Of a stretch of 64,000 nt of DNA, positions 5,317-51,502 are shown in pieces. The translations under genes and the position numbers were made by a program. Source of the stretch: Planctomycetota bacterium (GTDB lineage: Bacteria; Planctomycetota; B15-G4); contig JAJDEO010000013.1 of NCBI GenBank assembly GCA_029259745.1, forward strand, positions 1 through 64,000, in the 5' to 3' direction. Position 1 is the stretch's first letter; the number at the start of each line of letters is the position of its first letter. Below the pieces are notes generated by a model. The model did no database searches. It was given only the letters and a program-made list of their open reading frames with translations, and had not been told where the DNA came from.

Positions 5317-7131
5317 TCAGCTGTCGTACGACGCGTCGTGCGTGATGACGTGGACGCGATCGGCGGCGAGGTCAGTGCGAGTTTCTTCGGTTCCGTCGGG
5401 CCAGCGGACCGTCAGCTCGTCGACAACCGTTGCCTGCCCGAGTCCGAAGTGCAGCTCGCTCGGATGGCTGCTGAGATACGCCCCGTCGGCACCCACCTGC
5501 GCACATTGAACGAACTCACCGACGCGCACGGTCGCAACGGCACCGAGAGCTCGTTCGTTTCCACCGCGCTGCCGCAGGCGCAGAATGAATCGGTGGTGAT
5601 CGTTCGTTGTCGTGTTGCGCAGGAGGACGGGGCCTTCGCCGTGACGAGCGATGAGCAAGTCGAGGCGGCCGTCGCCGTCCCAATCCGCAGCGACACCGCC
5701 GCGTGCGACCCACGCGTCGGCCAACACGGGGCAAGCGCGCTCGCCGATCTCGAAGAAGCCGCGCTCGGGCACCTGGCGGAAGATGTGAGTTCGTTGAGGC
5801 TGGAGAAGCTTGGGCTGTCCGCTGACCTCCAGCGTACTGCCGTTCAACACCCACAGGTCGGGCCACCCGTCATCGTCGAAGTCCGCGAAGCCCGTCGACC
5901 ACCCGACCATCTGCAACGAGATCTGCCCGAGGCCATTCTGGTCGGCCTGGTCCATGAACAGCAGGCGCGGAGCGATCTCCTCGGATGACTTCTGGTCTCG
6001 CACCATGTTCTCGAAAAATGCATTCTCCTGCGCGACCCAATGCGTCACGAAGAGATCGAAGTCACCATCGTTGGAGAGGTCGGTGACGGCGAGGCCCATG
6101 GCCCCGCGGTAGTCGGCAGCGAGTGAGCTGGCTCCCACGTCTGCGAACGTGCCGTCACCTTCGTTGCGGAACACGCCGTTGGCGGAAACGTCGTTGGCGA
6201 CGTAGAGATCCAGGAGGCCGTCCATGTCGAAGTCGAACCAGATCGCGCCCAGTGAGCGCCCGGTGGGATTCGCGACGCCCGCTTCCACGGCGACCTCTGC
6301 AAAGCGACCGTCGCCCTCGTTGCGATAGAGACGATTGGCCTGCGGCGAGTAGGAAGACGGGTTGACCGTGAACGGGATCCCATGGCCGTACTGACGCGTG
6401 AGGCCGCTTCCATCGCCCTCGGGGACCTCGAAGTCCACGTAGTTGCACACGTAGAGGTCGAGGTCGCCATCGGCATCGGGATCGGCCCAGGAACACCCCG
6501 TGCCGAAGCCGGCATCGCCCACACCTGCTGCCGCGGTGACGTCGGTGAACGTTCCATCGCCTGCGTTGCGCATCAGACGGTTGGGACCCCAGGCGGTGAC
6601 GTAGAGGTCGAGGTCGCCGTCGGAGTCGTAGTCCCCGAAGGCAGCGCCTTGTCCGTAGAGCAGCAGGTCGAGGCCGGACGACGCAGACTGATCGGTGAAC
6701 GTGCCGTCGCCTTCGTTGCGCCAGAAGGCGCAGCGTCCCGTGGGCTCGGCCTGTTGCAGCGGGACATCGGCCGGGCCGGCGAAGTTCACGAGGAAGAGGT
6801 CGAGATCGTCGTCACCGTCGACGTCGCCGACCGCGAGCCCCGGCCCCATGTCCTCGGGCAGGAGTGATGAGCGCGTCGCGGGAAAGTGCTGGAACACGAT
6901 GCCGGTTCGCTCCGTCACGTCCTCGAACGTGAAGCTCACCATGTCGTCCGAAACTCCGCGCGTGAGCACACTCGTCAACCCGTCCACGCTGCCGTCCGGG
7001 TTGGCCGCGGAGGGATCCTCGCGCCCGCCGAAAGCAATCGCGACCCACGCGAGCAGAGACATCAGCACGAGAGCCGACACACCCCAGCGCAGCATCAGCG
7101 CGTGGCGCTTGCCGAGTCGTCGGCTAATCAC
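5317..7131 (-). CDS. FG-GAP/VCBS repeat protein with ASPIC/UnbV C-terminal domain (CRTAC1 family)
   Basis: Repeated DxDGDGDLDL(F/Y)V calcium-binding FG-GAP blades and RNEGDGTF motifs. N-terminal TM/signal region. The start overlaps the stop of the upstream cytochrome gene by 8 nt, consistent with an operon. Confidence 0.75.
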   Translation of the reverse strand: MISRRLGKRHALMLRWGVSALVLMSLLAWVAIAFGGREDPSAANPDGSVDGLTSVLTRGVSDDMVSFTFEDVTERTGIVFQHFPATRSSLLPEDMGPGLAVGDVDGDDDLDLFLVNFAGPADVPLQQAEPTGRCAFWRNEGDGTFTDQSASSGLDLLLYGQGAAFGDYDSDGDLDLYVTAWGPNRLMRNAGDGTFTDVTAAAGVGDAGFGTGCSWADPDADGDLDLYVCNYVDFEVPEGDGSGLTRQYGHGIPFTVNPSSYSPQANRLYRNEGDGRFAEVAVEAGVANPTGRSLGAIWFDFDMDGLLDLYVANDVSANGVFRNEGDGTFADVGASSLAADYRGAMGLAVTDLSNDGDFDLFVTHWVAQENAFFENMVRDQKSSEEIAPRLLFMDQADQNGLGQISLQMVGWSTGFADFDDDGWPDLWVLNGSTLEVSGQPKLLQPQRTHIFRQVPERGFFEIGERACPVLADAWVARGGVAADWDGDGRLDLLIARHGEGPVLLRNTTTNDHHRFILRLRQRGGNERALGAVATVRVGEFVQCAQVGADGAYLSSHPSELHFGLGQATVVDELTVRWPDGTEETRTDLAADRVHVITHDASYDS

Positions 7132-9462
7132 GCGGCGCGACTTCGATCGTGGAATGCACCTGCGTCATCAGCGTCACGGGAGAGCGAATGTCGGTCTCCG
7201 TGCCGTAGACAGCTTCCAGGAACTCCGGGTTCGCCTTGCGGTACCAGAGCGAAGCCGTGACGGTGAACGTGTCGGGAGACGTGTCGGCGTCAGCGCCGAA
7301 TGCAAAGTCCTCGACTCGCTCCCCGGGGGGCAACTTCTCGTCGTCGGGCGCGAGACGACCGCGCGACATCGAAGGGCACTGAAACTCGACATCGACGGCA
7401 TCCGACGTCGCAGGATAGACGCTCCGCTTGTAGCTCGACCCCACGAGGTCCCAGAGGTTGTGGCGATCGATCGGTTCTCCCTCGCGGTCGAACCCGACGC
7501 CCTTCATCAAGATGGGCGAGTCCGTGATCTCGTCGTCTTCGTCGAGTCCGCCTACATGAAAGATCTCGGTTCCGTCGGAAGACGTCACCAAGACCTCGAC
7601 CCAACTCTCGATCATGTCGAGTGGTCCGGTCGGGAAGTCGTGCCCGGTCTTGTTGTTCGTCAGCACGACGCGCACGACGACGTCATCGCCGGGGGCGATC
7701 CGCTCGGGCGCCACGACGTCCATGCGGACAACCGGGCCGGTCGCCCACTTGTCGGCGATCTCGGGGATCTCGTACTCGCCGCGCAACCAGGCCTCGGTCA
7801 GCCGCACGTGCTCGTCGGCCCCCTCGAGCCCGTGGAGCAACGGGATGTACTGGTTGGACGCCAGCATGCGATGGCTTCTGTGCTTGCCGTCGTCGCGAGT
7901 GCGGTTGACGTCCGTCATGTCACCGCGCGCCGGATCGGTGCTGTCCATCAGCGGCATGTGACACTCGCGACAACTGAGATCACGAGTGGAATCGTCCGGG
8001 TGATGCCAACGACTGTTCTTCCAGGAGTCATACTGATTCTGCCCTTGCACCTTGCCAATGTCGGTATTGACCTCTTTGTCGACGTACTGCTTGTGGCAGG
8101 CAGCGCAGAACTCGGGCGTTTTGTAGAGCGGACGTGAGTAGCTCTCGATGTGGTGCTCGGGGTACGTGCGAATCAGGAAGTCGCTGACGACCTTTGCGAA
8201 GTCTCCACCATTACTCTCGAAGATGTAGCGTTCGGGCTGACGCAACGTGTAGTCACCGTTGCCCTGCACGTCGGTCTGCACGATGGAGTGACAAACCAGG
8301 CACGAGCTCCCCTCGTCGGAACCTTCGGCGCTGAGAGTGATGTTGCCCTCGTTCTTGGCGCCGCTGAAGAGCGAGATCGGGTCGTGGCACCCAGCGCAAT
8401 AGCGCGTGTGCTCGGGTGACGTCTCCGCCGCCATGATCTCCTGGACACGCTGGAACATGTCGTCCAGCGCGGAGTAACGGTGTGCACTCGGAAGCCACTC
8501 TTCGTAGATCTGTGGATGACATCCGCTCGTGCCGCACCCCGCGCTGCCCGCCAGCGTCCCCGGCGGCGTCGCGCCGCGTTCGCGCACCTGACGCGCCGTC
8601 GACGTGAGGACGCGTTCGACGACATCGCGATCGACATCCGCACCGTCCACGCTCGCCACGGCAGCGCGCACGTGGTCGAAGAACCCGACCGTGTCGCCCC
8701 GTGGTTCGTCCATCGCGGCGGACAACGCGGCGCGGATGTCCGACGACACGGCCGCCAAGACACCGGTGCGCACGTCCTCTTCGACATCCACGTGCTCGAC
8801 GCGAGACATGCTCGGAGCGAAGGGGCGATCCTCGCCGAAGCGCCAGTTGTAGTCGTCGGGAAAGGGCTGCCCCACGACCGCTTGCTGATAGAAGAACGAC
8901 AGAATGCCGCCGATGATCAACAGGATGGCGGCCCCAGCGGCGCTGCGCCTGTAGAACGTGACACGCGCTGCTCGGAGACGCGCGCGTGCTTCGGCGCTGT
9001 GCACCGCGCGCACGATCAGCGTCGCCAAGTGCACGACCGTGAACAGCGGCACGCCGATGCCGCTCACGAGATGCACGATGTCCCAGAGTGTGGAAATACG
9101 CGGGCCGATCAGCCCCTGCACCGTCAGGATGACGCCGCTCGCAACACAAGCGACGAGGACGACGAGCGCGGCGTACCCCAGCAACTGATGGTGGCTGAGA
9201 TTCCCGCCACGGCGTACGAGCCAATGGCGCACGAGATACCAGCTTATCCACGGGAGTACGGCAACTCCGGCCACGGTATGCAGCAACACGCCGACCTGGT
9301 TGAAGCGACTGAACGGCAGCAGCAAGATGGCGAGTCCGGTCAGCGACTCGAAGAGCAGATAAGCGCCCGTGAGCCCTGCCAACGGCGATCGCCACTCGGC
9401 GATCGCGTCGACGCGGGCGCCCGTTTCGGAGAGGAGCGACGACCGACCCCGTGTCTCGTCTT
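7124..9462 (-). CDS. membrane-anchored multiheme c-type cytochrome
   Basis: At least five CxxCH motifs (CGTSGCH, CAGCH, CLVCH, CAACH, CRECH). N-terminal polytopic membrane domain (4-5 TM). Start ATG 9462 (MDSQDETRG...) is chosen because the in-frame upstream 70 codons are an R/G-rich non-protein-like extension. Confidence 0.7.
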
Positions 9463-9994
9463 GGCTATCCATCTCGGTCACCCGTGACGCTGAGGTGAGA
9501 GCGTCACAGCGCCTGGCGGCAGCTCCGTGCTCGGCGCCACACGGGTGGCCAGAGCCGCGGGGCGATCGGCCCCAGCTCCGCGTGGCAAAGCCAGCCTGGA
9601 CGTGCCCTGCATGATCCACCTCGCTGAATGAGGGAACTTCGCAACCCTCCTCCTGTTTACCTCCCACCCATCGCCGCGGCAATGCCTAATACGACTTTCC
9701 GATCAGTTTAGACGCATACAGTTCGAAGGACCGGAAAAGCCCCGAAATGAGCGTTCCTCAGGGAGCCGGTGGCAGCTGGACCGTCGGCGAAGAAGACAGC
9801 CCCGCTCGGGCGCAGCGAACACGACGCACAGTCACAGCCCCCGGCGCACTTTTCGGAATGCACTTTGTCTCGCGATCGCCCAAATCGGCTGCACGGTCGG
9901 CGCCTCGGTCACGCCTTGATCAGAAGACAACGCTGTCGCCGCCGACCTCGGCCGTGCGCGGCATCCCGAACGATTCAAGGAGAGGAACCGAACC

Positions 9995-11248
9995 ATGAAG
10001 ACCTCCATCATCTCACGCCTGGCGCTGTCGACTGTCGCCGCGCTGGCGCTTGCTGTCCCCGCGTCGAACGCCCAGTGCTTCGGCGACGACAACCTCGACA
10101 ACGGCCCATGCTGCGGCCTCACGCAGGCCAACCTTCCCGACTTCCCCGGCGTCCAGATGGGCGGACTGGGCGTCTGTTGGGATGCCTGCGCGGTGGTCGA
10201 CAAGAACAACATCCGCGTCGAGTGGGGCACCCTGAACCAGACGGTCTGCGGGCAGTACGTCACGCCGCTGCGCGTCATCGACGGAGCCACCGGCACGATC
10301 CTGCTCGACGGCCCGATGACGCTCGACTACTCCCGCACGTGGATCGAGATCGACCCGACCGGCATCGCGCATCAGGTCTGGCGCTTCGTCGCGAAGGTCG
10401 ACCTGACGGCCACGGCACCCGCCGGCGCCGTGCCACCGTGCCCGGTGCCGCTCAACCTCGTTCAGAACCCGAACGCCACGGCGTTCTTCTACGGGTACCT
10501 CGACTACGTCGACTGCCAGACCACGCCCGGCTTCGGTCCGCGCAACGCGCTCGTGCTCTACCACCCCTGCGACCGCTTCATGCACACGCCGGGCTTCTCG
10601 AGCCAGCCGGGTGCAGCTCACGGCGATGACGCGTTCGCGATCGTTGCGCCGCACAACGCCGCCCAGCCGTTCACGCCCGTGAACCAAAAGGCGCCCGGCG
10701 GTCCGGTCATCGAAGGCGCGACGCGCAACGTCTCGCCGTCGCCGCAGGTCTGCTTCGTCGAAGACCAGGTCTCCGTCGGATCGATCGCCGCTCTCGCCGC
10801 GGGTTGCCTCTGCACCGTGCAGAAGAACCCCAAGCAGCACACGATCCGTGACTTCAACGCCATGACGACCTGCCCGTCCCCCGTCGGCGTCCCCGGCGAC
10901 TGGGACAGCCAGGCCGTCAACTTCCCGACGCTGCCCTGGTTCGAGATGGTGACGACGAGCATCGGCTTCTGGAGCACGCCCGGCCTCTACCCCGGTGAAG
11001 AATCGGCCTGGGCCGACGAGGGTCTGTTCATCCACCAGGACGTCTGCCAGGGCTCGTTCATCGAGATCAAGTACGGCGGCTCGACGAACAAGGGCTGGGA
11101 CGCCCTCTCGTTCGCGGGCAACCAGCTCGGCTCGTTCACGGACATCGCCGACAACTGGTCGGCACCGCTGTTCGGCCCCTACAACCTGCCGATCTTCGGC
11201 AGCTCGCAGCCGACCGATCGCGTCATCCACGTCAACCTCGCGCCCTGA
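9995..11248 (+). CDS. secreted Cys-rich hypothetical protein
   Basis: Strong RBS AAGGAGAGG. Signal peptide MKTSIISRLALSTVAALALAVPASNA. No recognisable domain. Confidence 0.6.
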   Translation: MKTSIISRLALSTVAALALAVPASNAQCFGDDNLDNGPCCGLTQANLPDFPGVQMGGLGVCWDACAVVDKNNIRVEWGTLNQTVCGQYVTPLRVIDGATGTILLDGPMTLDYSRTWIEIDPTGIAHQVWRFVAKVDLTATAPAGAVPPCPVPLNLVQNPNATAFFYGYLDYVDCQTTPGFGPRNALVLYHPCDRFMHTPGFSSQPGAAHGDDAFAIVAPHNAAQPFTPVNQKAPGGPVIEGATRNVSPSPQVCFVEDQVSVGSIAALAAGCLCTVQKNPKQHTIRDFNAMTTCPSPVGVPGDWDSQAVNFPTLPWFEMVTTSIGFWSTPGLYPGEESAWADEGLFIHQDVCQGSFIEIKYGGSTNKGWDALSFAGNQLGSFTDIADNWSAPLFGPYNLPIFGSSQPTDRVIHVNLAP

Positions 11249-14694: not shown

Positions 14695-16209
14695 ATGATC
14701 TCGAGACTACGCATCACGTCACTTCTCGTGCTCGCCGCAGCCTTCAACCCCGCCGCTGCGCAGGACGAAGAGCCCCGCGACATCCGCATCGATCACCACT
14801 TCGACTCCGGATGGGTCAGCAACGACACCGATTCCGAAGCCGTCATCATCGCCTTTCCCGTTCACATCCAGACCGCGCGCTCTCTGCGCCTCTACTTCGA
14901 CGACATCCAGCTGTCGGGCAACACGTTCGACGGGACCGGGTCGACCCTGCGCATCACGGCGCTGCGCGACGACGCGATCCAGTCCATGAACGCCGATCAC
15001 GTCGCGCAGTGGCAGAACTCGAGCTGCTACTTCAACGGCAACGCGGTGATGGTCGAGGTGATCGCCCAGCCCGGCACCGGGCCCAACCGCGTCGCGCTCG
15101 AGTCGATCGACATGGGCCTTGCGTGGAATGAGTACGAGTCGATCTGCGGCGTCGACGACCGCCAGCCGTCGAACGATCCACGCGTTTCGCGTCTGCTGCC
15201 TGTGGGCTGTACGTCGTGGCTCATCGACGATTGCGGCAAGTGCTACCTCACGGCAGGTCACTGCGTCGGGTTCATCAACGCCGTCGAGTACAACGTGCCG
15301 TTCTCGACCTCGGGTGGCTCTTGGAATCATCCGGGCCCCGAGGATCAGTACGCCGTCGACCCCGCGTCGATCCAGTCGAACGGTGGCGGCGGCGTCGGCA
15401 ACGACTACGCCTACTTCGGCACGTTCGCGAACTCGAACACGGGTCTGACGGCCTTCGAGGCTCAGGGTGATGCGTTTGAACTCGTTGCTCCGCCGAGCAC
15501 GACGTCTGGAAACACGATCCGGATCACGGGCCACGGTACTGACAGCACGCCGAACTCGACCTACAACCAGGTGCAGCAGACGCACGTCGGCCCGCTCGTC
15601 GGCGCGAGCACGTCCTCGCTCCAGTACGCAACCGACACGACGGGCGGCAACTCCGGCTCGCCCGTGATCTGGGAGCAGACCGACCAGGCGATCGGCATTC
15701 ACACGCACGGCGGCTGCTCGAGCGGTGCCAACAACGGCACGGCGTTCACGCAGAGCGGACTGCAATCGGTACTCAACAACCCACAGGGCGTCTGTGCACT
15801 CGGCTCGACGAGCGGTGTCTTCAGCGACCTCGGGTTCTCGAAGGACGGCTTCTTCTTCGGTGCGCCGGAGCTCGCGGGCTGCGGCTCCCTCCAGCCTGCC
15901 TCGGCGATGACGCTCACGCTCGCGATGCCGTTCAACCTCAACGGCCTCGTCGCCACGCGTTTCATCGGCCTCGCGCAGATCAACGCACCGTTCAAGGGCG
16001 GCACGCTCGTGCCCGCCCCGACGATCGTGCTTGGCGGCCTTCCGCTCGAGAACAACGGTCCGCCGGGCGCCACACTCATCGTCGACGCCATCTGGCCTGC
16101 CGGCATCCCGTCAGGCACCGAGATCTTCATCCAGGACTGGGTGAACGTGCCGTTCGCCCTCGGCGACGAACTCGTCGCGTCCAATGCGCTGAAACTCACG
16201 GCCCCCTGA
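14695..16209 (+). CDS. secreted trypsin-like serine protease with conserved C-terminal sorting-like domain (CTD family member 1)
   Basis: Signal peptide MISRLRITSLLVLAAAFNPAAAQ. Catalytic His in CYLTAGHC and Ser in GGNSGSP. The last roughly 85 aa (FIGLAQINAPFKGGTLVPAPTIVLGGLPLENNG...WPAGIPSGTEIFIQDW...SNALKLTAP) are homologous to the C-termini of four other proteins in the window. Confidence 0.8.
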   Translation: MISRLRITSLLVLAAAFNPAAAQDEEPRDIRIDHHFDSGWVSNDTDSEAVIIAFPVHIQTARSLRLYFDDIQLSGNTFDGTGSTLRITALRDDAIQSMNADHVAQWQNSSCYFNGNAVMVEVIAQPGTGPNRVALESIDMGLAWNEYESICGVDDRQPSNDPRVSRLLPVGCTSWLIDDCGKCYLTAGHCVGFINAVEYNVPFSTSGGSWNHPGPEDQYAVDPASIQSNGGGGVGNDYAYFGTFANSNTGLTAFEAQGDAFELVAPPSTTSGNTIRITGHGTDSTPNSTYNQVQQTHVGPLVGASTSSLQYATDTTGGNSGSPVIWEQTDQAIGIHTHGGCSSGANNGTAFTQSGLQSVLNNPQGVCALGSTSGVFSDLGFSKDGFFFGAPELAGCGSLQPASAMTLTLAMPFNLNGLVATRFIGLAQINAPFKGGTLVPAPTIVLGGLPLENNGPPGATLIVDAIWPAGIPSGTEIFIQDWVNVPFALGDELVASNALKLTAP

Positions 16210-16581: not shown

Positions 16582-17130
16582 ATGGACGATGTGTATCTGT
16601 GGTCGGCGGTAGGCGGCGGAGGGCTTCTCATCCTCCAAGTGCTGCTGATGCTGATCGGTGGCGACGACTTCGACGGCGAAGGTGACATTGACGTCGACGG
16701 AGGTGGCTCGACGCTCTTCTTCAAAGCGCTGAGCCTCAAGACGATCGTCGCGTTCTTCACCTTCTTCGGCTTGGCCGGAGTGTGGTCGACGGGAAGCGGC
16801 TGGTCGACAGGCTCGTCACTCGCACTCGCGAGCATCACCGGCATGCTGGCGTTCTTCGTCATCGGCTGGGTCATGAACGCGCTGATGGAGCTGCAATCGA
16901 GCGGCACGATCCAGCTCGAGGACGCCATCGGGCAGACGGCCGACGTCTACCTGCGGATCCCAGGCAAGCACAAAGGGCACGGCAAGGTGACGGTGACGTG
17001 CGGCGGACGCACGCACCAGGCCAAGGCCGTCACGTCGGGTGAAGAGATCCCGACGGGTCGATCAGCGCGCATCGTGGGGATGTCGAGTCCCGGCACGCTG
17101 GACGTCATCGCACTCGACGAGGAGACCTGA
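16582..17130 (+). CDS. NfeD-family membrane protein (OB-fold C-terminal domain)
   Basis: RBS GGGAGG. TM helices plus a C-terminal beta-barrel segment (KGHGKVTVTCGGRTHQAKAV). The stop lies 1 nt before the flotillin start, the typical nfeD-flotillin arrangement. Confidence 0.7.
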   Translation: MDDVYLWSAVGGGGLLILQVLLMLIGGDDFDGEGDIDVDGGGSTLFFKALSLKTIVAFFTFFGLAGVWSTGSGWSTGSSLALASITGMLAFFVIGWVMNALMELQSSGTIQLEDAIGQTADVYLRIPGKHKGHGKVTVTCGGRTHQAKAVTSGEEIPTGRSARIVGMSSPGTLDVIALDEET

Positions 17131-17131
17131 C

Positions 17132-18772
17132 ATGTTCGACTTCATCACCGAGAACGTCGGCGCGCTGGGGACGGGCATCCTCGTTCTCTTCGTCCTGCTG
17201 ATGATCATCCTGCTCGTCAAACGCTACAAGCGCTGCCCGAGCAACCGCGTCCTCGTCATCTACGGACGCGTGAGTGGCGGATCAGCCAAGTGCCTGCACG
17301 GTGGCGGCGCGTTCGTCCTCCCGCTGATCCAAGACTTCTCATTCCTGTCGCTCGACCCCATCCAGATCGAGGTGCCGCTCAAGGGTGCGCTGTCGATCGA
17401 GAACATCCGCGTGAACGTGCCCAGCGTGTTCACCGTGGCGATCGGAACCGACAGCACCGCGATGAACAACGCGGCCGTGCGTCTGCTCGGACTCAACACG
17501 CACGAGATCATGAAGCAGGCCGAGGACATCATCTTCGGTCAGCTGCGCCAAGTGATCGCCTCGATGCGCATCGAGGACATCAACCGCGACCGCGACAAGT
17601 TCCTCGAGGCGATCCAGAGTTCGCTCGAACCCGAGCTCGAGAAGATCGGCCTCGTCCTGATCAACGTCAACATCACCGACATCACGGACGAGTCGGGCTA
17701 CATCGAGGCCATTGGTAAGAAGGCCGCGAGCGAGGCGATCCAGCAAGCCGAGATCGACGTCGCGGAGCAGCGGAAGAAGGGCTCGATCGGCGTCGCGGAG
17801 GCTGAGCGGGAGCGTGCGATCAGCGTCGCAGAGGCCGAGAAGCTGCAGATGATCGGCACCAAGAAGGCCGAGCAGGAGCGCACCGTCCAGGTCGCAAACC
17901 TCGAACGAACGAAAGCGATCGGTGAGCAGGCGGCGCTCTACGAGCAGGAGGCGCAGGTCAAGAACGACGAGCGCGAGATGCGCATCAAGGTCGCCGAAGC
18001 CAACGCGACGGCCGTCGCTGGTGAGAACCTCAGCCGCGCCGAAATCGCCGACTCGAACGCCAAGCTCCAGGTGAAGGAAGCCGAGGCATTCCAAATCGGT
18101 GAGACGCGCAAGCGTGAAGCCGATGCGGCCGTTCGTGAGGCACAGTACGAGGCCGAGGCCAAGGCCGCCACGGCGCTGTCGTTCAAGATCGAGGCCGAAA
18201 AGCGCGCCGAGATGGAAGCCGTTGCCAAGGCCATGAAGGCCAAGCAGATCGTCGACGCCGAGGCGCGCGCCGAGCGCACGCGTATCGAGGCGGAAGGCGA
18301 AGCGGCGGCAATCTTCGCGCGACTCGAAGCCGAGGCCAAGGGTGAGTATCAGATCCTGGCCAAGAAGGCGGCGGGTCTAAAGGAGATCGTCGAAGGCTGT
18401 GGAGGTTCGCAGCAGGCGTTCCAGCTCATGATGCTCGAGCACCTCGAGAAGCTCTCGGAAACAGCGGCGACCGCGATCTCGAACATCAAGTTCGACAAGA
18501 TCGTCGTCTGGGAAGGCGGAGGTGCAGGCGACGGCAGCGGTGGCACGGCCGGGTTCTTGAAGAGCCTGACGGGCGCGCTGCCGCCGATGCTGGAAGTGAT
18601 GAAGGACATCGGCGGTGTCGAGATGCCCGAGTACTTCGGCAAGCTCGTCGACCCGGACTCCGATGCGAAACGCACGCCCGTCGCCTCGCGCATCAGCAAA
18701 GAGGACTCGGAGTCGAGCGACGACGGCGCCGAGGATGATCACTCGAATGGCGCCGACGAGGTCACCGAGTGA
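17132..18772 (+). CDS. flotillin (SPFH/band-7 family, YqiK/FloT-like)
   Basis: N-terminal TM GALGTGILVLFVLLMIILLV, then the SPFH domain (RVLVIYGRVSGG...), a long EA-rich coiled coil and an acidic tail. RBS GGAGAC. Confidence 0.85.
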   Translation: MFDFITENVGALGTGILVLFVLLMIILLVKRYKRCPSNRVLVIYGRVSGGSAKCLHGGGAFVLPLIQDFSFLSLDPIQIEVPLKGALSIENIRVNVPSVFTVAIGTDSTAMNNAAVRLLGLNTHEIMKQAEDIIFGQLRQVIASMRIEDINRDRDKFLEAIQSSLEPELEKIGLVLINVNITDITDESGYIEAIGKKAASEAIQQAEIDVAEQRKKGSIGVAEAERERAISVAEAEKLQMIGTKKAEQERTVQVANLERTKAIGEQAALYEQEAQVKNDEREMRIKVAEANATAVAGENLSRAEIADSNAKLQVKEAEAFQIGETRKREADAAVREAQYEAEAKAATALSFKIEAEKRAEMEAVAKAMKAKQIVDAEARAERTRIEAEGEAAAIFARLEAEAKGEYQILAKKAAGLKEIVEGCGGSQQAFQLMMLEHLEKLSETAATAISNIKFDKIVVWEGGGAGDGSGGTAGFLKSLTGALPPMLEVMKDIGGVEMPEYFGKLVDPDSDAKRTPVASRISKEDSESSDDGAEDDHSNGADEVTE

Positions 18773-20613: not shown

Positions 20614-20753
20614 CGAATCCGCTCAGACAACCGGAGTGACACACGGGCGGTCGAGGCGAGACCTGCGCGACATGGATCCGGATGAGGGGAGCAGACGCCC
20701 GAGTCCTCGATGCCCGCGCCGCCATGTCACTCCCCCTACCTCTGAGCAAGCCG

Positions 20754-21371
20754 TCAGTCTTCGAGCACGAGATCCGCGAGCCGCGCCAAGGCCCGCGGGA
20801 GCAGGTTGCGAATCGACGCCTCCGTGCGCCCCGTCACCTGAGCAATCTCGGCCCGCGAGAGCCCCGCGACACGCGACAGCATGATCACTTCGCGATGGTC
20901 GTCGGGCAGCTGCTCGAACGCCGCATCGAGACGCTCGAGGGCCTCCCGCCCCACGGCGTCTTGACTCGGACTCGAAAGCGTGCGCCGCACGAGGTCGAAC
21001 ACGCCGTCCTCGACACGCTGCTCGCGTCCGACGTCGCGCCGCTGCGCCTTCCAGTACTCGGCACGATCCGCGATCTTGCGCGAGACGTGCGTGTAGAGCC
21101 AAGCGCGGAACGCGGCCTCACCTCCGTAGCGGAAGCGTGGCGCCCCCTCGAGCACTTCGCGAAACGCCGACTGCACGACATCATGGGCCGATTCGCGCGC
21201 CGCGAGCATCGGCCCGAGACGGAGGCGGGCGAACGCGAGCAAGGCGGGCATGTGCTGCTCGAACAGAGCGTCGACAGCCCCAGGCTCACCGGCACGGAAG
21301 CGCTCGATCGCGCCCTCGGATACGACCGCCCAGTCCGGCGGTACACTCGTCTCTCGTTCCATCATCGGCAT
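20754..21371 (-). CDS. ECF-family RNA polymerase sigma factor
   Basis: Sigma-70 region 2 (HDVVQSAFREVLEG...FRAWLYTHV) and region 4 (HREVIMLSRVAGLSRAEIAQVTGRTEASIRNLL). Start at MPMMERE (21371). Divergent from the Ser/Thr kinase gene, 71 bp away. Confidence 0.8.
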   Translation of the reverse strand: MPMMERETSVPPDWAVVSEGAIERFRAGEPGAVDALFEQHMPALLAFARLRLGPMLAARESAHDVVQSAFREVLEGAPRFRYGGEAAFRAWLYTHVSRKIADRAEYWKAQRRDVGREQRVEDGVFDLVRRTLSSPSQDAVGREALERLDAAFEQLPDDHREVIMLSRVAGLSRAEIAQVTGRTEASIRNLLPRALARLADLVLED

Positions 21372-21442
21372 TCCGTTGGGAGGCGTGATGCAGTCTTGGA
21401 GAAGCACGACGCGACTGTGGTATTGCGCAGGAGATACACGAC
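21372..21442. promoter_or_regulatory. divergent promoter region between ECF sigma and Ser/Thr kinase genes
   Basis: 71-bp spacer between divergent starts at 21371 (-) and 21443 (+). No motif is assigned. Confidence 0.3.
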
Positions 21443-24370
21443 ATGAGTGACGAGCGTGAGCACGTCGCCGAGTTCGTCGCGCGTTGCGTCGCACTTCGTG
21501 AGAGCGAAGGTGACGTCTCGATCGAAGCCGTGTGTGCCGAACACCCCCACCTCGCCGAGGCTGTTCGTCGGCGCCTCGACGTGCTCACGTCGATGGGCAT
21601 GCTCAACGACGAAGAGACGCCACAGCGCGGACGACGCCTCGGCCCGTTCGAGCTCCTCGGCAGTCTCGGGGGCGGCGGCATGGGCGAGGTCCACCTCGCC
21701 CGTCAGGACGGACTCGAACGTCATGTCGCCCTCAAGATCGTGCGCCCCGACCATTTGCACTTCTCGGGCGCGCGCGAGCGGTTCGCGCGCGAAGCGGAGG
21801 CGATTGCGCAGCTCAAACATCCCGGCATCGTACCCGTCTACACCGTGGGCGAGGATGGAGGTGTCCCGTATCTCGCCATGGAGTGCGTCGAGGGAGCAAC
21901 GCTCGAGGAGATCCTGACATCCGTGTCGGGCCGCGACCCGGCCACGCTTTCGGGGCGCGACATCGAGCGCGCGGTCGAGGCCTGTGTCGAGCGTCTCGAT
22001 CTCGCGCGCGGAACGACCAGGACCTCATGGTCGTCGGAGGGACGCGGGCGCGCGCTCTTCACGGCGAGCTGGGTCGAAGCCGTGCTGCGTCTTGGCGTCG
22101 CGGTCACCGACGCGCTGCAGCACGCCCACGACCGCGGAATCCTCCACCGCGACGTCAAGCCGTCGAATCTCATGCTGACGCTCGATGGACGCGTGCTGCT
22201 GCTCGACTTCGGACTCGCGCTGCGCGATGGAAGCGCACGCATGACGCGTACGGGTGCCGTGGTCGGGTCGTTGACGTACATGGCACCCGAACTGATCCGC
22301 GGTGAAGAAGCCGACGCCCGTGCGGACGTCTACGGACTTGGCGTGACCCTGTTCGAGATGCTCGCCCTGCGCGCACCTTTCATCGGGAACGACTACGACA
22401 CGACGCGCGCCGCGATCCTTGCCGGCGGCCCACCCTCGGTGCGCTCGACGAACCCCTCGGTGGGCCAGGACGCGGCCACGCTGCTGGGCATCGCCCTGGC
22501 CGCGCAGCAGGCCGACCGCTACCCGTCCGCGGCAGCTCTCGGTGCCGACCTCCAACGCGTTCTCGAACGCCGCCCGTTGCTGGCAAAACCGCCCAGCGCC
22601 GCACTCCGCACGTGGCGCTGGGTCCAACGTCGCCCAGCATTCGCGGCGGCCTGCGCGCTGGCGTGCGTGCTAGCGATCGGTGGCCCGATCACGTACGCCA
22701 TGCTCGCCCAACGGCATGCCGACGAAATGTCGGACATCGCCCGTGAAGCCAAGGATGCGGCCCAGCGCGCCGATGAGGAATCGCTTCGCGCCACGGCGGC
22801 GATGCGCGCGACGGAACGCCACTTCGCACTGGCCAAGCACGCCATCGACGACCTCCTCGTCGAAGTCGGCCGCGTCGACCTCAAAGACCACCCGCGCATG
22901 CTCGCCGTGCGCCACAGCATCATCGATCGCGCCATCACGGCCTACGACACCCTCATCGAAGCGCGCCCCGACGACGTCGACCTGCGGTTCGAGCGCCTCT
23001 CGATCCTCAACAACGCGGCCGTCTTGCTGCTGAACATGGGTGAGTCGTCGGAGGCACTCGAACGCTACCAGCAGTCGCTCGACCTCTCGACGGCGGAACT
23101 CGCACTTGTCACCCCGGGATTGGCGCCGCGTGCACTCGTCCGACAGCACATCAAGACAATCTTGGCAATCGCCATGGCGAGGATCGCACGCGGCGAGTTG
23201 GACCGCGGAAACGAGCTGCTCGTCGAGGCCTTGGCTCGCCTGGAGCTCGCCACCGAGACGTTCCCCGACGACCGCGACCTGCTGACCGACCTTGCCGAGG
23301 CACGTGGATACTGGGCCGATCAACTGGCCATGCTGGGCAACGAGGACGCGGCGGACGCGGAGTACGAACGCGCTCTCGAACTGCTGGACGCGTTGCTCAC
23401 GGGCGTCCGTGACGACGCGCGCGCTTTGCACGTCCGCACCTGGATCGGGCAGTCGTGGGTGACGCACTTGAGCGAGCTCCAACGTCTCGAAGCGTGTGTC
23501 GACGCCGGCCTCGAAACCCTCACGTTCGCCGATCGTCTCGAGGAACTCGGGCGCACGACGGTCGCCGATCGCACGGCGCGCCACGCCGTCTGGGCACACA
23601 TGGGTCGCAGTTTATCGCGACTCGGTGCAGCATCCGAAGCGGAGTCGATGCTCGCCGCGGCACGCGCGGCCGCACGCGCCCTCTCCGAAGAGCACCGCGA
23701 CGACGCTCACATCGTCACGACATACCTCAACTCGCTCGACTTCAGCGCAGCGCATGCCCGCCGCGTGGGTCGTCCAACGGACGAACTCGAGTTCTACATC
23801 GAGCTCGAGCTCGCATCGCGGCAGGCACACGAAGCGGCACCGACCCTGGTCGCGCCCGCCATCTCGCAGGCCTTGGCAGCACTCGGGCAGGCGCGCGCCC
23901 AGCGCAGTCTGCACGCTCCCGAAGCGGCGCTCGTCGCCGCACAACGGGCGGTGGAACTCTGCCGCGCGCTCGAGGGTCGCGTTGAACGGGCAACGTGGAC
24001 GGAGAGGATGCGTGACTTCTTCGACGTCCTCGGCCGCGTCCACGATGATCTGGGCGACCACGCCGCCACGATCCGTGCCGCCGAGGCGATGGCGAGTGTC
24101 GACCCCGAGTCCGCAACGGCGACGAGCCTCCGACGCGCGGCTTTCCTGATGTGTTGTGCGCTCGAGGACCTCTCACGCGACACCAGGCTCGGGGCGGACG
24201 AGCGCGACACACGTCGTCGCGCAACCATCGACCGCTGCATCACTCTGCTCACACAGGCCGCACGCCTTTCCCCCGTGCCGCCGGCGAGTTTTCGTGTCGA
24301 TCCGCGCTGGTCACCCATTCTCGATCACCCGCACTTTCCCGCGATCGAAACAGCGTTTGCGCTTCCGTGA
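21443..24370 (+). CDS. Ser/Thr protein kinase with C-terminal TM and TPR-like region
   Basis: N-terminal ECF-associated motif (CAEHPHLAEAVRRRLDVL), then GxGxxG (LGSLGGGGMGEVHLA), VALK, HRDVKPSNLML and DFGLA kinase motifs. A TM helix and a long helical repeat region follow. Confidence 0.85.
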   Translation: MSDEREHVAEFVARCVALRESEGDVSIEAVCAEHPHLAEAVRRRLDVLTSMGMLNDEETPQRGRRLGPFELLGSLGGGGMGEVHLARQDGLERHVALKIVRPDHLHFSGARERFAREAEAIAQLKHPGIVPVYTVGEDGGVPYLAMECVEGATLEEILTSVSGRDPATLSGRDIERAVEACVERLDLARGTTRTSWSSEGRGRALFTASWVEAVLRLGVAVTDALQHAHDRGILHRDVKPSNLMLTLDGRVLLLDFGLALRDGSARMTRTGAVVGSLTYMAPELIRGEEADARADVYGLGVTLFEMLALRAPFIGNDYDTTRAAILAGGPPSVRSTNPSVGQDAATLLGIALAAQQADRYPSAAALGADLQRVLERRPLLAKPPSAALRTWRWVQRRPAFAAACALACVLAIGGPITYAMLAQRHADEMSDIAREAKDAAQRADEESLRATAAMRATERHFALAKHAIDDLLVEVGRVDLKDHPRMLAVRHSIIDRAITAYDTLIEARPDDVDLRFERLSILNNAAVLLLNMGESSEALERYQQSLDLSTAELALVTPGLAPRALVRQHIKTILAIAMARIARGELDRGNELLVEALARLELATETFPDDRDLLTDLAEARGYWADQLAMLGNEDAADAEYERALELLDALLTGVRDDARALHVRTWIGQSWVTHLSELQRLEACVDAGLETLTFADRLEELGRTTVADRTARHAVWAHMGRSLSRLGAASEAESMLAAARAAARALSEEHRDDAHIVTTYLNSLDFSAAHARRVGRPTDELEFYIELELASRQAHEAAPTLVAPAISQALAALGQARAQRSLHAPEAALVAAQRAVELCRALEGRVERATWTERMRDFFDVLGRVHDDLGDHAATIRAAEAMASVDPESATATSLRRAAFLMCCALEDLSRDTRLGADERDTRRRATIDRCITLLTQAARLSPVPPASFRVDPRWSPILDHPHFPAIETAFALP

Positions 24371-24759
24371 GGCCAGTACGGATGGAGGGCGCACGTGGGA
24401 CGGACTCACACGCGGAGCCCCTCGAACATCACGAGGGCGCCGTGCGAGTTGGACCGATCGTTACAGTTCCGAAGACGTGTCACTTTACCGCGACGCGACG
24501 TCTGTCGAGTGCTCACCACTGTCGAGAAGTGATAGTCTTCAGCGCTCGAGAGTCGTCGTGAGGGCGTGACTTCTTCAGTAGAGGCAGGACGCGCGAGGTG
24601 TATGCCGAGGCATCTTCAGGCCTAGGTCGACGCGCGTTCGCTGAACAGAGACACGCCCCGCCGACCCTCGCGAGATGTTGGCGGCACGTCTGGCCAGTGA
24701 ACACAAGTGGACACGAGCCGATCGTCGCTACAGTGAACTGTCATGCGCGGGGGGCCAAC

Positions 24760-25338
24760 GTGGGCGAGGCCGAAGCAGACGAAACGACGGAGATTCTCCA
24801 CGAGATTGCCAAAGGCAATCGCGCGGCTGTCGATCGACTCGCGCCAGCCGTCTATCGCGAGCTCCATGGCCTTGCGCAAAGCATGCTGCGCCGCGAGGTG
24901 CGCGACCACACGCTACAGCCGACAGCCCTCGTCAACGAAGCGTACCTCCGACTGATCGACCAAGACCGGGTCGAGTGGGCATCGCGTGCGCACTTCTTTG
25001 CGATCGGCGCCAAGGCCATGCGACGCATCCTCATCGACCACGCGCGGAACCGCAAGCGACTCAAGCGCGGTGGAAACCATGTGCGCGTGATCGTCGACAC
25101 CGAGCTTGCCCTCTCCTTCGACCGTCCCGAGAGCTTCCTCGCACTCGACGAAGCTCTCGTCAAACTACGGGGACTCGACCGACGCCAATGCGACGTCGTC
25201 GAGATGCGGTTCTTTTCAGGCATGACCATGAGCGAGATTGCCGAGGCGCTGAACACATCCAAGCGCACCGTCGAGGGCGACTGGATGCTGGCACGTGCTT
25301 GGCTGCGCCGTGAGTTGAGCGACCCAAGCGTCGAATGA
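24760..25338 (+). CDS. ECF sigma factor of the Ser/Thr-kinase-associated (TIGR02999-like) type
   Basis: N-terminus EILHEIAKGNRAAVDRLAPAVYRELHGLAQSMLRREVRDHTLQPTALVNEAYLRL is characteristic of that family. Region 4 FSGMTMSEIAEALNTSKRTVEGDW. Start GTG 24760 (alternative GTG 24733). The stop overlaps the kinase start (ATGA). Confidence 0.7.
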   Translation: MGEAEADETTEILHEIAKGNRAAVDRLAPAVYRELHGLAQSMLRREVRDHTLQPTALVNEAYLRLIDQDRVEWASRAHFFAIGAKAMRRILIDHARNRKRLKRGGNHVRVIVDTELALSFDRPESFLALDEALVKLRGLDRRQCDVVEMRFFSGMTMSEIAEALNTSKRTVEGDWMLARAWLRRELSDPSVE

Positions 25339-27536
25339 GTCGCGATCAGCACAAGCGGGTCAGGAAGCTCTTCCTGCGTGCCGTGCGACGACCGGCCGAC
25401 GAACGCACCGCGTTGCTCGACGCCGAGTGCGACGACCAAGAACTTCGCGCCGACGTGCAGTCACTGCTCGACCACCATGTCGACGACGTCGCGACCGACA
25501 GCCTCGACGACATGCTCCCTGAAGTGCTGGTGCCGAGCAGTGGTCTCCGCAGCGCCTTTCAGTTCATGGCGAGGCAGCGCCCTTTCGTCACGGCCGCGCT
25601 GACAACGCTTCTCGTCGCGTCTGTTGGCATGCTGCTGCTCGCCATCGTCATGCAGCGGGAGATGCGTCACGTCCAAGCTGCCTCGCTCCGCACGATCCAT
25701 CGGGTGAGCCTCGAGGCTCTCGAGCAGGCTCTCAACACCCATCGCATGCAGGTTGTCGACTGCGCCGGTATGCCCAGCGTGCGTGCCGTGGTCCAAGACA
25801 TGGTCGCCCTCGAGGTCGGCGAACGAACGGACGAGGAGAGCGCGGACATCCCCAAGCTGCGCGCGCTCAACGAACGCATGAACGTGTTGATCGCGTCGTG
25901 GCTCGAAACGCTGCCCGGCGCGACGGGCTTCGGGATCGCTGACGAGCGCGGATACGTCCTCGCGATCGACGCCAACGACCGTGATTGGCTCGGCCGCAGG
26001 CTCTCCCCGATGGGTCGCCAGCTGACAACAGCAGTCATCGCCGCTGGACCACGCGTCCTGCTGCCATTCAGCGAGGATGAGCTCGTCGACACACCGCTAC
26101 GCCCCGACTCGATCAACACACTCGCCTTTACCGCTCCCATCCGCGGCAGCGACGGCACGCCGGTTGCCGCACTCGCAGTCTTCGTGGACGTCGAAGCCGA
26201 CTTCACGCGCATCCTCTCGCTCGCGCGGAGCACACCCGCAGGAACGACCTACGCGTTCGACGACCGCGGTGCCATGTTCTCGGCGCAACAGATCGACGAC
26301 GCCCACGACAGCCTGGCTTACGATGACAAAGGACGTCTCTTGCTCCTCGACCCCGGCGCCGACATCACACAAGGCGAGACGCCCGACCCCGTTTCGCTAC
26401 GTCCGACGACGCGCATCGTGCGCCAGGCGCTCGCCGAACGATCGAACCCCGAAGGGCCGCGTACCGGTGAGGTCAGCGACTACCGCGACATCCGCGGAGT
26501 AGAGTCCTTCGGGTTCTGGACGTGGCTCGACGAGTTCGGCTTCGGCGTGATCACGGAGATCAGCGATCGCCAAGCGTCGACGCCGATCCGTCCGCTGCGC
26601 AGCACGAGCGTGGGATTGATGGTCGCCACCATCGGGGCGCTGCTCGCCCTCTTCATCACGACGGGCGCTGCGAGAATGCTCCGTTCACGCCTCGCGCACA
26701 TCCGCCGACTCGGCAGCTACACGCTCGTCGAACACCTCGGCGTCGGCGGCATGGGCGACGTGTTCTTGGCGCGTCACGACATGCTCAAGCGCCCCACCGC
26801 CGTCAAGGTCCTCAGTGCGCGAGCGCTCACCGAGGTCGGCATCGCGCGCTTCGAACGCGAGGTGCAGTTCATGTCGCTGCTCACCCACCCGAACACCGTC
26901 GGCATCTACGATTACGGCCTCACCACCGAAGGGCTGCCGTACTTCGCGATGGAGTACGTCGACGGCACGACGCTCAAGTCGCTCGTCGAAACGGAGGGCG
27001 CGCTGCCCCTCGCGCGCGCCGTCGGCATCCTCGAACAACTCTGTGGAGCCCTCGCCGAGGCGCACACGCTGGGGCTCGTCCACCGCGACGTGAAACCTCT
27101 GAACATCATGCTGACCGAGCGGGGCGGTCGGCACGACTTCGTCAAGCTCCTCGACTTCGGACTCGCCAAGGACGTCCAACGCCGCCAGGACCTCACGCTC
27201 ACGTCCGCGACGACCGGCACGCCGCTCTACATCGCTCCCGAAGTCCTGCGCAGCCCTTCGGCGACGTCACCACGCTCGGACGTCTACTCCGTCGGCATCA
27301 TCGCCTACTACCTCGTGACGTCACGCGAGGTATTCGAGGGCGACACGGCTCTCGAGCTGTTCGCCCAGACCCTGACCGAAGACGTGCCGACACTCGCGGC
27401 ACTCACCGGCATCTCGCCGGACTTCGAGCAACTCATCCGCGACTGCCTCGCGAAGGATCCCGAGGAACGCCCGCAACACGCCGGCGCCGTCCTCGAACGA
27501 CTGCACGCGATCAGGGCCGCCATCGTGCCGACCTAG
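25335..27536 (+). CDS. Ser/Thr protein kinase with periplasmic sensor domain
   Basis: N-terminal ECF-associated motif (LFLRAVRRPADERTALLDAECDDQELRADVQSLLDHH), TM, a roughly 270-aa extracytoplasmic domain, a second TM, then the kinase domain (VGGMGDVFLARH, HRDVKPLNIML, DFGLAKD). Stop TAG 27534-27536 directly abuts MITE copy F. Confidence 0.85.
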   Translation: MSRDQHKRVRKLFLRAVRRPADERTALLDAECDDQELRADVQSLLDHHVDDVATDSLDDMLPEVLVPSSGLRSAFQFMARQRPFVTAALTTLLVASVGMLLLAIVMQREMRHVQAASLRTIHRVSLEALEQALNTHRMQVVDCAGMPSVRAVVQDMVALEVGERTDEESADIPKLRALNERMNVLIASWLETLPGATGFGIADERGYVLAIDANDRDWLGRRLSPMGRQLTTAVIAAGPRVLLPFSEDELVDTPLRPDSINTLAFTAPIRGSDGTPVAALAVFVDVEADFTRILSLARSTPAGTTYAFDDRGAMFSAQQIDDAHDSLAYDDKGRLLLLDPGADITQGETPDPVSLRPTTRIVRQALAERSNPEGPRTGEVSDYRDIRGVESFGFWTWLDEFGFGVITEISDRQASTPIRPLRSTSVGLMVATIGALLALFITTGAARMLRSRLAHIRRLGSYTLVEHLGVGGMGDVFLARHDMLKRPTAVKVLSARALTEVGIARFEREVQFMSLLTHPNTVGIYDYGLTTEGLPYFAMEYVDGTTLKSLVETEGALPLARAVGILEQLCGALAEAHTLGLVHRDVKPLNIMLTERGGRHDFVKLLDFGLAKDVQRRQDLTLTSATTGTPLYIAPEVLRSPSATSPRSDVYSVGIIAYYLVTSREVFEGDTALELFAQTLTEDVPTLAALTGISPDFEQLIRDCLAKDPEERPQHAGAVLERLHAIRAAIVPT

Positions 27537-30149: not shown

Positions 30150-30298
30150 CGGGGCCAGCTCCAGGAGCGGATCGCGAGCCTCGAGTGGTGGAATACGGCC
30201 CGGATATCGGGAGAGAGGGAGCCGTGGACGCGAGGATCGCTGGTCGGGGGAGGACTACAGCTCACACCGCGATGGGCCACCCGTCAAGCTTCGGCCGC

Positions 30299-31597: not shown

Positions 31598-31600
31598 GTC

Positions 31601-32026
31601 TCAGAGGTCGACGACGAAGGAAACGGTCTCGGCGACGTCGCCGGCGCGCAGGTCGAAATGGAGGTCCCAGCGCCCGCGCATGTGCAGCAGCAGCCCCTCC
31701 ACGCGATAGCGCCCCGCGCCCATGTCGCGCACCGGCGGCGTGCGCACCATGCCGTGGCCGTGGTCGGGCATCCACCCGCGCACGGCGACGTCGAGCCCCG
31801 CCGCGGGCTCGCCGTCCAAATCGACGGCGACGTCGAGATCGCGACTCTCGTTGCGGGCCAGCGGCATGCCGGTCGACCGCCACGCGACGGAGAAGCGGCC
31901 CTCGCCCGCAGCGCTTGTCACCCACTGCTCGGACGGCGCAAGCGCGTCATCCGCGCACGCTCCGAGCACCATGACGATCGCGGCAGCGAGCCCCGAGACC
32001 GTCCAACGTCGCACCGAGTTCAGCAT
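31601..32026 (-). CDS. lipoprotein with FixH/YtkA-like domain
   Basis: Lipobox VMVLGAC. The GWMPDHGHGM motif resembles YtkA/FixH-like metal-binding domains. The stop lies 4 nt upstream of the CCP start, suggesting co-transcription. Confidence 0.45.
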   Translation of the reverse strand: MLNSVRRWTVSGLAAAIVMVLGACADDALAPSEQWVTSAAGEGRFSVAWRSTGMPLARNESRDLDVAVDLDGEPAAGLDVAVRGWMPDHGHGMVRTPPVRDMGAGRYRVEGLLLHMRGRWDLHFDLRAGDVAETVSFVVDL

Positions 32027-32061
32027 GGCCCCATCCTTCCTGAGAGTTGGACGTCTCGCCA

Positions 32062-32160
32062 GCCCGGGCTGTCAGGGAGAGCGTCGCGAAGCCGCAGCTG
32101 GGCCCATGCTGGCAAAGCGAAGCGACCTCTCTGACGTGATTCAACCCCCGAGGATCAGGG
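32062..32160 (+). repeat. MITE-like repeat, copy E (5' half only, 3'-truncated)
   Basis: CCCGGGCTGTCAGGGAGAGCGTCGCGAAGCCGCAGCTGGGCCCATGCTGGCAAAGCGAAGCGACCTCTCTGAC...GAGGATCAG aligns with the left half of copies A-C. The right TIR is absent. Confidence 0.5.
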
Positions 32161-51448: not shown

Positions 51449-51502
51449 TTAACGTGAGACGCCGCTGCCGCGACGGCAGCGAGATATCTTGGGGGCAAGA
51501 TC

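Follow-up and report, generated by a model that had tools for sequence, protein, structure and literature searches.

In a 64,000-nucleotide stretch of a Planctomycetota genome (GenBank assembly GCA_029259745.1, contig JAJDEO010000013.1, positions 1 to 64,000; hereafter the window), a serine protease gene ends in a C-terminal domain (CTD) that recurs on many unrelated proteins. The CTD family is large, lineage-restricted and obligately C-terminal. Comparative evidence suggests that the CTD is probably a lineage-specific C-terminal tag for sorting to, or anchoring on, the cell surface. We propose an address tag because the combination of its features matches that of known C-terminal sorting or anchor domains, and we infer from the sequences that the CTD behaves as a new kind of such tag. 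Protein transport across and onto the unusual envelope of Planctomycetota is largely unknown, and the CTD-bearing lineages are uncultured.

Distribution and terminal position of the CTD family

A CTD profile was searched against a library of 1.84 billion representative proteins, clustered at 50% identity. At E ≤ 1e-3 the profile matched 9,412 clusters, of which 2,144 reached E ≤ 1e-30. Sequences with an organism name came mostly from metagenome-assembled genomes (MAGs) of uncultured Planctomycetota/Phycisphaerales. Of the 150 best representatives, the 143 that were newly returned were rescanned, and every one of them had exactly one CTD (143/143); the domain ended at the last residue in 134 and was never more than 10 residues from the end. 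For a sample of loci, one genome per GTDB species was scanned for the peptide APFKGGTLV, giving 79 loci from 13 MAGs (1.34 Mb). The taxonomic label is Planctomycetota or uncultured Phycisphaerales/Phycisphaeraceae for eleven of these MAGs, and Gammaproteobacteria or Pseudohongiellaceae for the other two. A hidden Markov model (HMM) detected 171 distinct CTD copies in the 1.34 Mb and the window, with no open reading frame (ORF) carrying two (0/171). Where a copy matched through the end of the model and its ORF ended in a stop codon, the CTD stopped exactly at that codon in 130/143 cases. Single MAGs contained at least 37 (OFTM49), 24, 23, 19, 18 and 16 distinct copies.

CTD genes often lie in tandem arrays of FG-GAP/VCBS paralogues, such as the five within 7.4 kb in locus L039. 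A few small proteins (P0020, P0038 and P0048) consist of a signal peptide and the CTD alone; the gene of P0048 (L081, 10001-10483) is complete and lies on a 1.9-Mb contig among uninformative neighbours. The few CTD genes on contigs binned into gammaproteobacterial MAGs are found in L014 and L076 (Pseudohongiellaceae MAG JBLIMM) and L053 (Gammaproteobacteria MAG VGVB), and the genes binned into such MAGs include an orthologue of the window protease, P0288. These could be mis-binned planctomycete contigs or cases of horizontal transfer.

The CTD is a terminal beta-sandwich on an S1B-type protease

The protease gene (14695-16209, +; defined by its ORF and translation) encodes a 504-aa, presumably secreted serine protease of S1B type (V8/glutamyl-endopeptidase-like), and an identical 504-aa protein, P0264, is present in NCBI on a 130-kb contig. 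It begins with a putative signal peptide, MISRLRITSLLVLAAAFNPAAAQ (14695-14763, +), in which residues 3-21 were modelled by AlphaFold2 as a helix with a low predicted local distance difference test (pLDDT) score. Signal peptides of the window proteins were read by eye. The full-length AlphaFold2 model, computed from 53 aligned homologues, has a mean pLDDT of 90.7. An N-terminal beta-sandwich at residues ~30-141 (14782-15117, +), with strands at pLDDT ~97, had no match in a Pfam scan and is possibly a pro-domain. It is followed by a linker of lower confidence (residues 141-160) and by the S1 catalytic domain at residues ~160-365 (15172-15789, +). The catalytic residues His189 (15259-15261), Asp237 (15403-15405) and Ser320 (15652-15654), in the motifs AGHC, GNDYAY and GGNSGSP, are invariant in the 53-sequence alignment. 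The sequence-only reading had called the protein a trypsin-like protease, and Pfam bears this out: residues 172-347 matched Trypsin_2 at 28.3 bits (cutoff 27.6) and Trypsin at 25.4 bits (cutoff 20.6). A profile of the protease family matched V8 protease among PDB sequences (E 6e-8). With Foldseek the model gave template modelling (TM) scores of 0.70-0.76 to V8, Esp and Spl (0.70 to Esp/V8), with an identity to the solved proteases of only ~20%. The chymotrypsin fold, the conserved triad and the match to trypsin-like models all point to membership of peptidase family S1B. The catalytic domain thus shares its fold and its His/Asp/Ser triad with the V8/Esp/Spl glutamyl endopeptidases, whereas neither these enzymes nor VesB/VesC have the additional N-terminal beta-sandwich or this CTD.

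In the model, the S1 fold closes with a C-terminal helix at residues 354-361, and the strands of the CTD begin at residue 376 and reach residue 502. The pLDDT stays at 86-90 over the junction, indicating a clean domain boundary with no flexible linker. On the question raised with the sequence-only reading, whether CTD boundaries coincide with predicted domain linkers, the CTD does begin at a structural boundary, after the S1 helix, and no disordered linker lies there. The first CTD strand, FSDLG (residues 376-380), corresponds to the start motif of the family, W-x-D-L-G, and on this basis the CTD comprises residues 375-504 (15817-16206, +): 130 aa that form a seven-strand immunoglobulin (Ig)-like beta-sandwich ending at the last residue. 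The HMM envelope spans 15841-16206 (99.7 bits). The interval to which the domain had earlier been assigned, 15937-16209 (+), does translate to the residues quoted for it, including FKGGTLVP and WPAGIPSGT, and ends at the stop codon. It lies inside the domain but holds only the last ~90 residues, since the true start, at nucleotide 15817, is ~120 nt upstream; a start at 15937 (residue 415) omits the first three beta-strands. Modelled alone from 44 sequences, the CTD again gave a confident seven-strand sandwich (pLDDT 89).

The best-conserved positions of the CTD are APFKGG(T/V)LVP, WPxGxPSG, a Gln in strand 6 and the terminal A-S-N-(A/G)-L-x-x-T-T-P. Proline is the last residue in 113 of 140 complete copies, and SN occupies positions -9/-8 in ~112 of the 140; the window protease terminates in ...LTAP. 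According to the alignment and the model, the most conserved residues are located in loops, APFKGG between strands 3 and 4 and WPxGxPSG between strands 5 and 6. Because consecutive strands are antiparallel, both loops and the C-terminus should converge at the pole opposite the N-terminus and the passenger, that is, the protein part preceding the CTD.

None of the family libraries searched contains a match to the CTD. Pfam and NCBIfam scans of the full window proteins and of 88 full-length members gave no match on the domain, and isolated CTDs had no domain-wide match at E ≤ 10 in Pfam (5 domains) or NCBIfam (44 domains). The CTD profile returned only noise from PDB sequences (E 0.3 or worse), and the CTD model had no Foldseek match below E 1e-3. 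The CTD family is absent from the copies of Pfam-A, NCBIfam and PDB that were searched. A literature search found no account of the CTD, nor of the GC-type dockerin described below. With a CTD model, thousands of proteins now called hypothetical could be annotated as surface or secreted cargo.

The window copies are homologous and the protease fusion is old

The last 125 aa of the protease were compared by BLASTP with other window proteins. The alignments covered 118 aa at 36% identity (E 2e-17) with the protein at 42-44 kb, 95 aa at 39% (E 7e-17) with the protein at 44-45.7 kb, and 59 aa at 41% (E 1e-8) with the protein at 27.7 kb. When trained solely on sequences from elsewhere than the window, an HMM recovered four window copies at E 1e-38 to 1e-22: the protease (1.8e-24), a choice-of-anchor B protein (9e-23), the 42-44 kb protein (1.3e-38) and a beta-helix protein (4e-31). 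Homology was also backed by a leave-one-out HMM, and four window ORFs contained cores of the FKGG(T)(L/I)VP or WPAGIP type in a motif scan. The BLASTP spans and the external HMM, which missed the tail of an amidase protein, thus establish a real, domain-length similarity among four copies.

In view of these results, convergence on a short motif and recent duplication or domain shuffling within the window have next to no likelihood as sources of the resemblance. The FKGGTLVP and WPAGIPSGT cores do stand out most to the eye, as a convergent motif would predict, but the alignments span 95-118 residues at E ~1e-17, and the similarity does not fall apart outside the 10-residue core. Against local duplication, identity among the four window copies reaches only 28-41%, and ~150 copies from other genomes are closer to the protease CTD than any window copy. 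Chance and local duplication are excluded.

The sequence-only reading had described the protease CTD as having its highest identity to the members of the 42-46 kb cluster, which is an overstatement. Its closest relatives are the CTDs of orthologous proteases (44-48% identity, E 1e-32 to 1e-27), and the window paralogues rank 152nd, 164th and 285th of 292 matches. Since its CTD is closest to those of orthologous proteases, the fusion is old and vertically inherited with the protease, with no recent transfer from the 42-46 kb cluster.

Homologues carry alternative tails in place of the CTD

We compared tails among the 120 top-ranking protease-core homologues, each of which is listed with ≥50% identity over the core. 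The fusion to the CTD is conserved in 47 of the 120. The low identity among window copies agrees with the earlier view that the domain is dispersed rather than a local tandem duplication. Other homologues end instead in a GC-type dockerin (NF041540, cutoff 29), as confirmed for the orthologues P0326 (42.8 bits, E 5e-11) and P0360 (61.3 bits, E 8e-17), and some have PKD and a further tail at their end. A different tail, of ~130 aa, closes about 15 of the 120 (...ERSDIDNVELTGR / ...GDVDDVTV...); its carriers include P0291, P0304, P0305, P0307-P0309, P0320 and P0325. In P0305 and P0309 no region had an NCBIfam match, and hhalign found no relation of this tail to the CTD, so that it looks like another undescribed C-terminal module. 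Some protease homologues carry diverged relatives of the CTD: when the variant tails of protease orthologues were compared with the CTD by hhalign, one group was linked at 97%, two were weakly linked (57% and 27%) and three were unlinked.

A similar exchange was seen for the choice-of-anchor B protein. Among 120 orthologues, 39 match a dockerin HMM of our own, with Pfam PF00404-type tails, and five carry the CTD superfamily; many end, at the CTD position, in a hydrophobic stretch followed by Arg residues. Because homologues of the same passenger differ in their tail at this place, the CTD is positionally interchangeable with the alternative tails.

Related genomes seem to use the GC-type dockerin, an anchor according to its NCBIfam name, as their alternative tail. 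On orthologues of the window protease it stands at the C-terminus, where the window protein has its CTD, but it has no sequence similarity to the CTD; its model is much shorter (67 positions) and the tail ends in ...G-C, whereas the CTD is a beta-sandwich ending in Pro. The window protease itself had no match in NCBIfam, NF041540 included, and lacks a Gly-Cys end. The 1.34 Mb from CTD-bearing genomes contained no dockerin of the GC type.

Passengers of the CTD are diverse extracytoplasmic proteins

The passengers were classified with Pfam and NCBIfam in 88 full-length members, and all were of extracytoplasmic types. Most are non-enzymatic repeat or propeller proteins. FG-GAP/VCBS repeats occur in 15 of the 88, and the other passengers include beta-helix proteins, several kinds of beta-propeller, PKD, C-type lectin, choice-of-anchor L and NxxGxxAF repeats. 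The choice-of-anchor B passenger in the window belongs to TIGR04312, a family defined by its alternative C-terminal anchors. Enzymatic passengers comprise a gingipain-like C25 peptidase with a pro-domain, an M12 metallopeptidase and a polyhydroxybutyrate (PHB) depolymerase, and two members resemble a T9SS-dependent M6-like protease (T9SS, type IX secretion system).

This range makes it very improbable that the CTD is a pre-peptidase-type extension, specific to enzyme maturation, which aids the folding, latency or secretion of a protease and is then removed. Secreted proteases often carry removable C-terminal beta-sandwich domains, and VesB and VesC combine an S1 protease, a C-terminal Ig-like domain and a sorting signal. 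These two Vibrio S1 proteases are among the structural matches to the full-length protease model, in which the CTD directly follows the catalytic domain. However, the CTD is also found on FG-GAP, beta-helix, propeller, PKD and choice-of-anchor proteins, which need no activation, and it occurs alone behind a signal peptide. Moreover, it had no Pfam match at E ≤ 10, including to the pre-peptidase C-terminal (PPC) domain PF04151.

Gingipains are the textbook T9SS cargo of P. gingivalis, whose PorU is a sortase that is itself C25-like. P0165 combines a C25 cysteine peptidase, a gingipain-type pro-domain and the CTD, and has homologues in at least two MAGs (L056, 7892-10315; L010, 2304-4241; L003, 12419-14095). 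It was considered as a PorU-like sortase and set aside: in the PDB it matches gingipain R and the Lys-gingipain pro-domain rather than PorU, and so is more likely to be cargo.

The CTD resembles known sorting domains in logic, not in sequence

T9SS cargo proteins have an N-terminal signal peptide and a conserved C-terminal beta-sandwich that is recognised by the translocon and removed by PorU (PMC5445135). The CTD shares much with the type A T9SS CTD of Bacteroidota (TIGR04183 / Por_Secre_tail). Both are Ig-like beta-sandwiches at the extreme C-terminus of Sec-exported cargo (here predicted), and both occur once per protein on many unrelated cargoes, including proteases and gingipain-type C25 peptidases. 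A further likeness is that window copies are carried by a protein with a strong choice-of-anchor B match and by one with a weak, sub-cutoff NxxGxxAF match. In contrast, the CTD does not match TIGR04183 / PF18962 or the type B models TIGR04131 / PF13585. It is also longer (~115-130 aa), with motifs of its own (W-x-D-L-G, APFKGG, WPxGxPSG and a terminal T-T-P), and its hosts are Planctomycetota, whereas the T9SS is stated in PMC12398890 to be confined to the Fibrobacteres-Chlorobi-Bacteroidetes (FCB) group. Because the sequences do not match and the hosts lie outside the FCB group, the CTD is best regarded as an analogue of the T9SS CTD in logic, not as a member of that family.

A strict T9SS-like signal, with recognition by a translocon, sortase-like cleavage and covalent attachment to a surface glycolipid, is accordingly an unlikely reading of the CTD. 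The signal peptide, the strictly terminal beta-sandwich and the variety of unrelated cargoes would suit it, as in T9SS CTDs (PMC5445135), and so would the gingipain-like C25 peptidases with pro-domain and the two M6-like members. Against it stand the lack of any match to T9SS CTD models at E ≤ 10, the planctomycete hosts, the cargo-like rather than PorU-like matches of P0165, and the lack of a flexible linker before the CTD at which a peptidase might cut. None of the T9SS machinery genes looked for (SprA/Sov, PorK-N, PorV, PorU) was present among the sampled neighbours, and no genome-wide search was made.

PEP-CTERM/exosortase, LPXTG/sortase and GlyGly-CTERM/rhombosortase systems resemble the CTD in that each tags the C-termini of many paralogous surface proteins and is specific to a lineage. 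A further likeness is the hydrophobic stretch with Arg residues that choice-of-anchor B orthologues have at the CTD position. Their signals, those of the three systems, differ in comprising ~25-35 residues with a motif, a transmembrane helix and a basic tail, whereas the CTD is a folded, soluble domain of 130 residues with neither a hydrophobic helix nor an Arg/Lys cluster.

Proposed role of the CTD

In the sorting or anchor role that we favour, CTD proteins would be exported by Sec through their N-terminal signal peptide and would fold in the periplasm. The CTD would then be read as a common address tag by a shared envelope partner, which might be a receptor, a translocon or a surface polymer, and which would bring the unrelated passengers to the cell surface or retain them there. 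The recognition surface is likely to be the pole of the sandwich opposite the passenger, formed by the APFKGG loop, the WPxGxPSG loop and the free ...SNAL-x-x-T-T-P C-terminus; both the export and the location of this surface are deduced from the sequences and models. Either cleavage of the CTD, as for the T9SS CTD, or its retention, as for a dockerin, would fit. More specifically, the CTD may mark cargo for a pathway, so far undiscovered, by which uncultured Planctomycetota/Phycisphaerales secrete proteins across the outer membrane or attach them to the surface. Such a pathway, which we put forward as a tentative possibility, would be a counterpart to the T9SS CTD or to cohesin-dockerin display made of unrelated parts, with APFKGG, WPxGxPSG and ...T-T-P as the recognition tip.

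The main rival is a plain ligand- or substrate-binding module, similar to a carbohydrate-binding module (CBM) or lectin, that targets an environmental polymer or particle with no dedicated sorting machinery. The beta-sandwich fold is like that of many CBMs, and CBM21 and the Wzt carbohydrate-binding domain are among the low-ranking Foldseek matches of the CTD. The concentration of conserved residues in loops and the lack of a machinery gene nearby are also consistent with binding. CBMs, however, occur at either protein end, internally and in tandem, whereas the CTD is always last and always single (143/143 representatives, 171/171 ORFs). In addition, most passengers are non-enzymatic, and the conserved free C-terminus, together with the replacement of the CTD by dockerin-type or hydrophobic-plus-Arg tails, points to attachment. 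We consider a binding module of this kind rather unlikely.

Several points weigh against the sorting or anchor role. The convergence of the conserved loops was deduced from strand order rather than from coordinates, the signal peptides were judged by eye, and the CTD-bearing lineage is known from MAGs only. The gene neighbourhoods, clustered as 909 ORFs from 80 sources (the 79 loci and the window), yielded no partner or machinery gene, as families other than kinases and CTD proteins recurred in at most 4 of the 80 sources. The contexts of the protease orthologue P0281 and of the CTD-only P0048 were uninformative. Finally, a binding module that is always C-terminal and single, as a dockerin is, would leave the same genomic signature, so that a sorting signal and a non-covalent anchor are inseparable here.

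As a sorting or anchor tag, the CTD would delimit the probable surface proteome of organisms that are common in activated sludge and in marine biofilms, and it offers a handle for phylogenetic profiling of genes that co-vary with the tag. For the window protease, such a tag would imply an extracellular endopeptidase that stays with the cell, neither freely released nor periplasmic.

Other CTD genes in the window

All four CTD-bearing window proteins start with signal-peptide-like sequences, as read by eye. Besides the protease, they are a signal-peptide protein at 42398-44035 (+; CTD 43682-44032) with a weak NxxGxxAF-repeat match (TIGR05002, 27.3 bits, cutoff 50), a signal-peptide right-handed beta-helix protein at 44101-45717 (+; CTD 45364-45714; Pfam Beta_helix, E 1.2e-12), and the choice-of-anchor B / LVIVD protein at 27704-30149 (-; CTD 27707-28045). 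The last matches TIGR04312 in its N-terminal part (28977-30254) at 263.9 bits (cutoff 100). Its frame is broken near 29077, leaving two overlapping ORFs (27704-30254, -), and a tblastn search with the intact orthologue in L036, a single 911-aa ORF, placed the switch of frame at 29076/29077. The NCBI product covers only the 390-aa N-terminal part (P0384). In an independent Logan assembly of run SRR15505515, a 3,024-bp stretch spanning the break is 100% identical to the window, and the break is therefore present in the reads; it may be a pseudogene, a strain variant or a systematic error.

A fifth copy had been assigned to the tail (47741-48085) of an Amidase_3 + CarboxypepD_reg protein at 46559-48088 (+; Amidase_3, E 1.7e-43). 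Although the last 120 residues of the five proteins so named align into a 119-column consensus, only four copies stand: the amidase tail scored 1.9 bits with the external HMM and E 0.1 or worse in BLASTP (0.11 against the protease), and had no match by hhalign. This ~115-residue end of the peptidoglycan amidase has only a general pattern in common with the CTD (...LQA...SNG...LP at the end), and its single link, with P0120, is marginal (E 0.009). The tail may represent a different domain or a highly diverged CTD branch.

Genes neighbouring the CTD genes

Ser/Thr kinases recur near CTD genes in 23 of the 80 sources, although the planctomycete kinase background is itself high. Kinases near CTD arrays (e.g. 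L013, L037, L055, L058 and L071) have large C-terminal membrane regions, and in four loci (L037, L041, L058 and L071) a sigma factor of extracytoplasmic function (ECF) type lies directly beside the kinase. In the window, the region 20640-27536 (+), between two CTD genes, contains kinases at 21389-24370 and 25314-27536. Ten neighbours examined with Pfam in CTD-dense loci were unrelated or unannotated, apart from one ORF similar to the G protein of the type II secretion system (T2SS-G). An S41 peptidase 2.5 kb downstream of the protease was considered as a processor of its C-terminus, and this idea was dropped because the S41 gene does not recur near other CTD genes.

The neighbourhood of the protease gene is not conserved around the orthologue P0281 (5.3-Mb contig). 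Directly 3' of the protease gene lies an NfeD-like/flotillin (Band_7) gene pair (16582-18772, +). The same pair directly precedes two CTD genes in L074 (16524-18593; OFTM9), and these are the only two instances. A di-haem MauG/CCP peroxidase and a YtkA-like gene (30299-32071, -) are syntenic with the choice-of-anchor B gene in L036. Elsewhere, the window encodes a multihaem cytochrome-like protein (7124-9685, -) with weak, mostly sub-cutoff matches to MtrC/MtrF, c554 and c7, and a 1,792-aa ORF (51458-56836, +). A 442-aa ORF at 9920-11248 (+) has no Pfam match, and homologues 48-51% identical to it adjoin CTD genes in two other MAGs (L003, 10021-11514; L063, 4918-6471).

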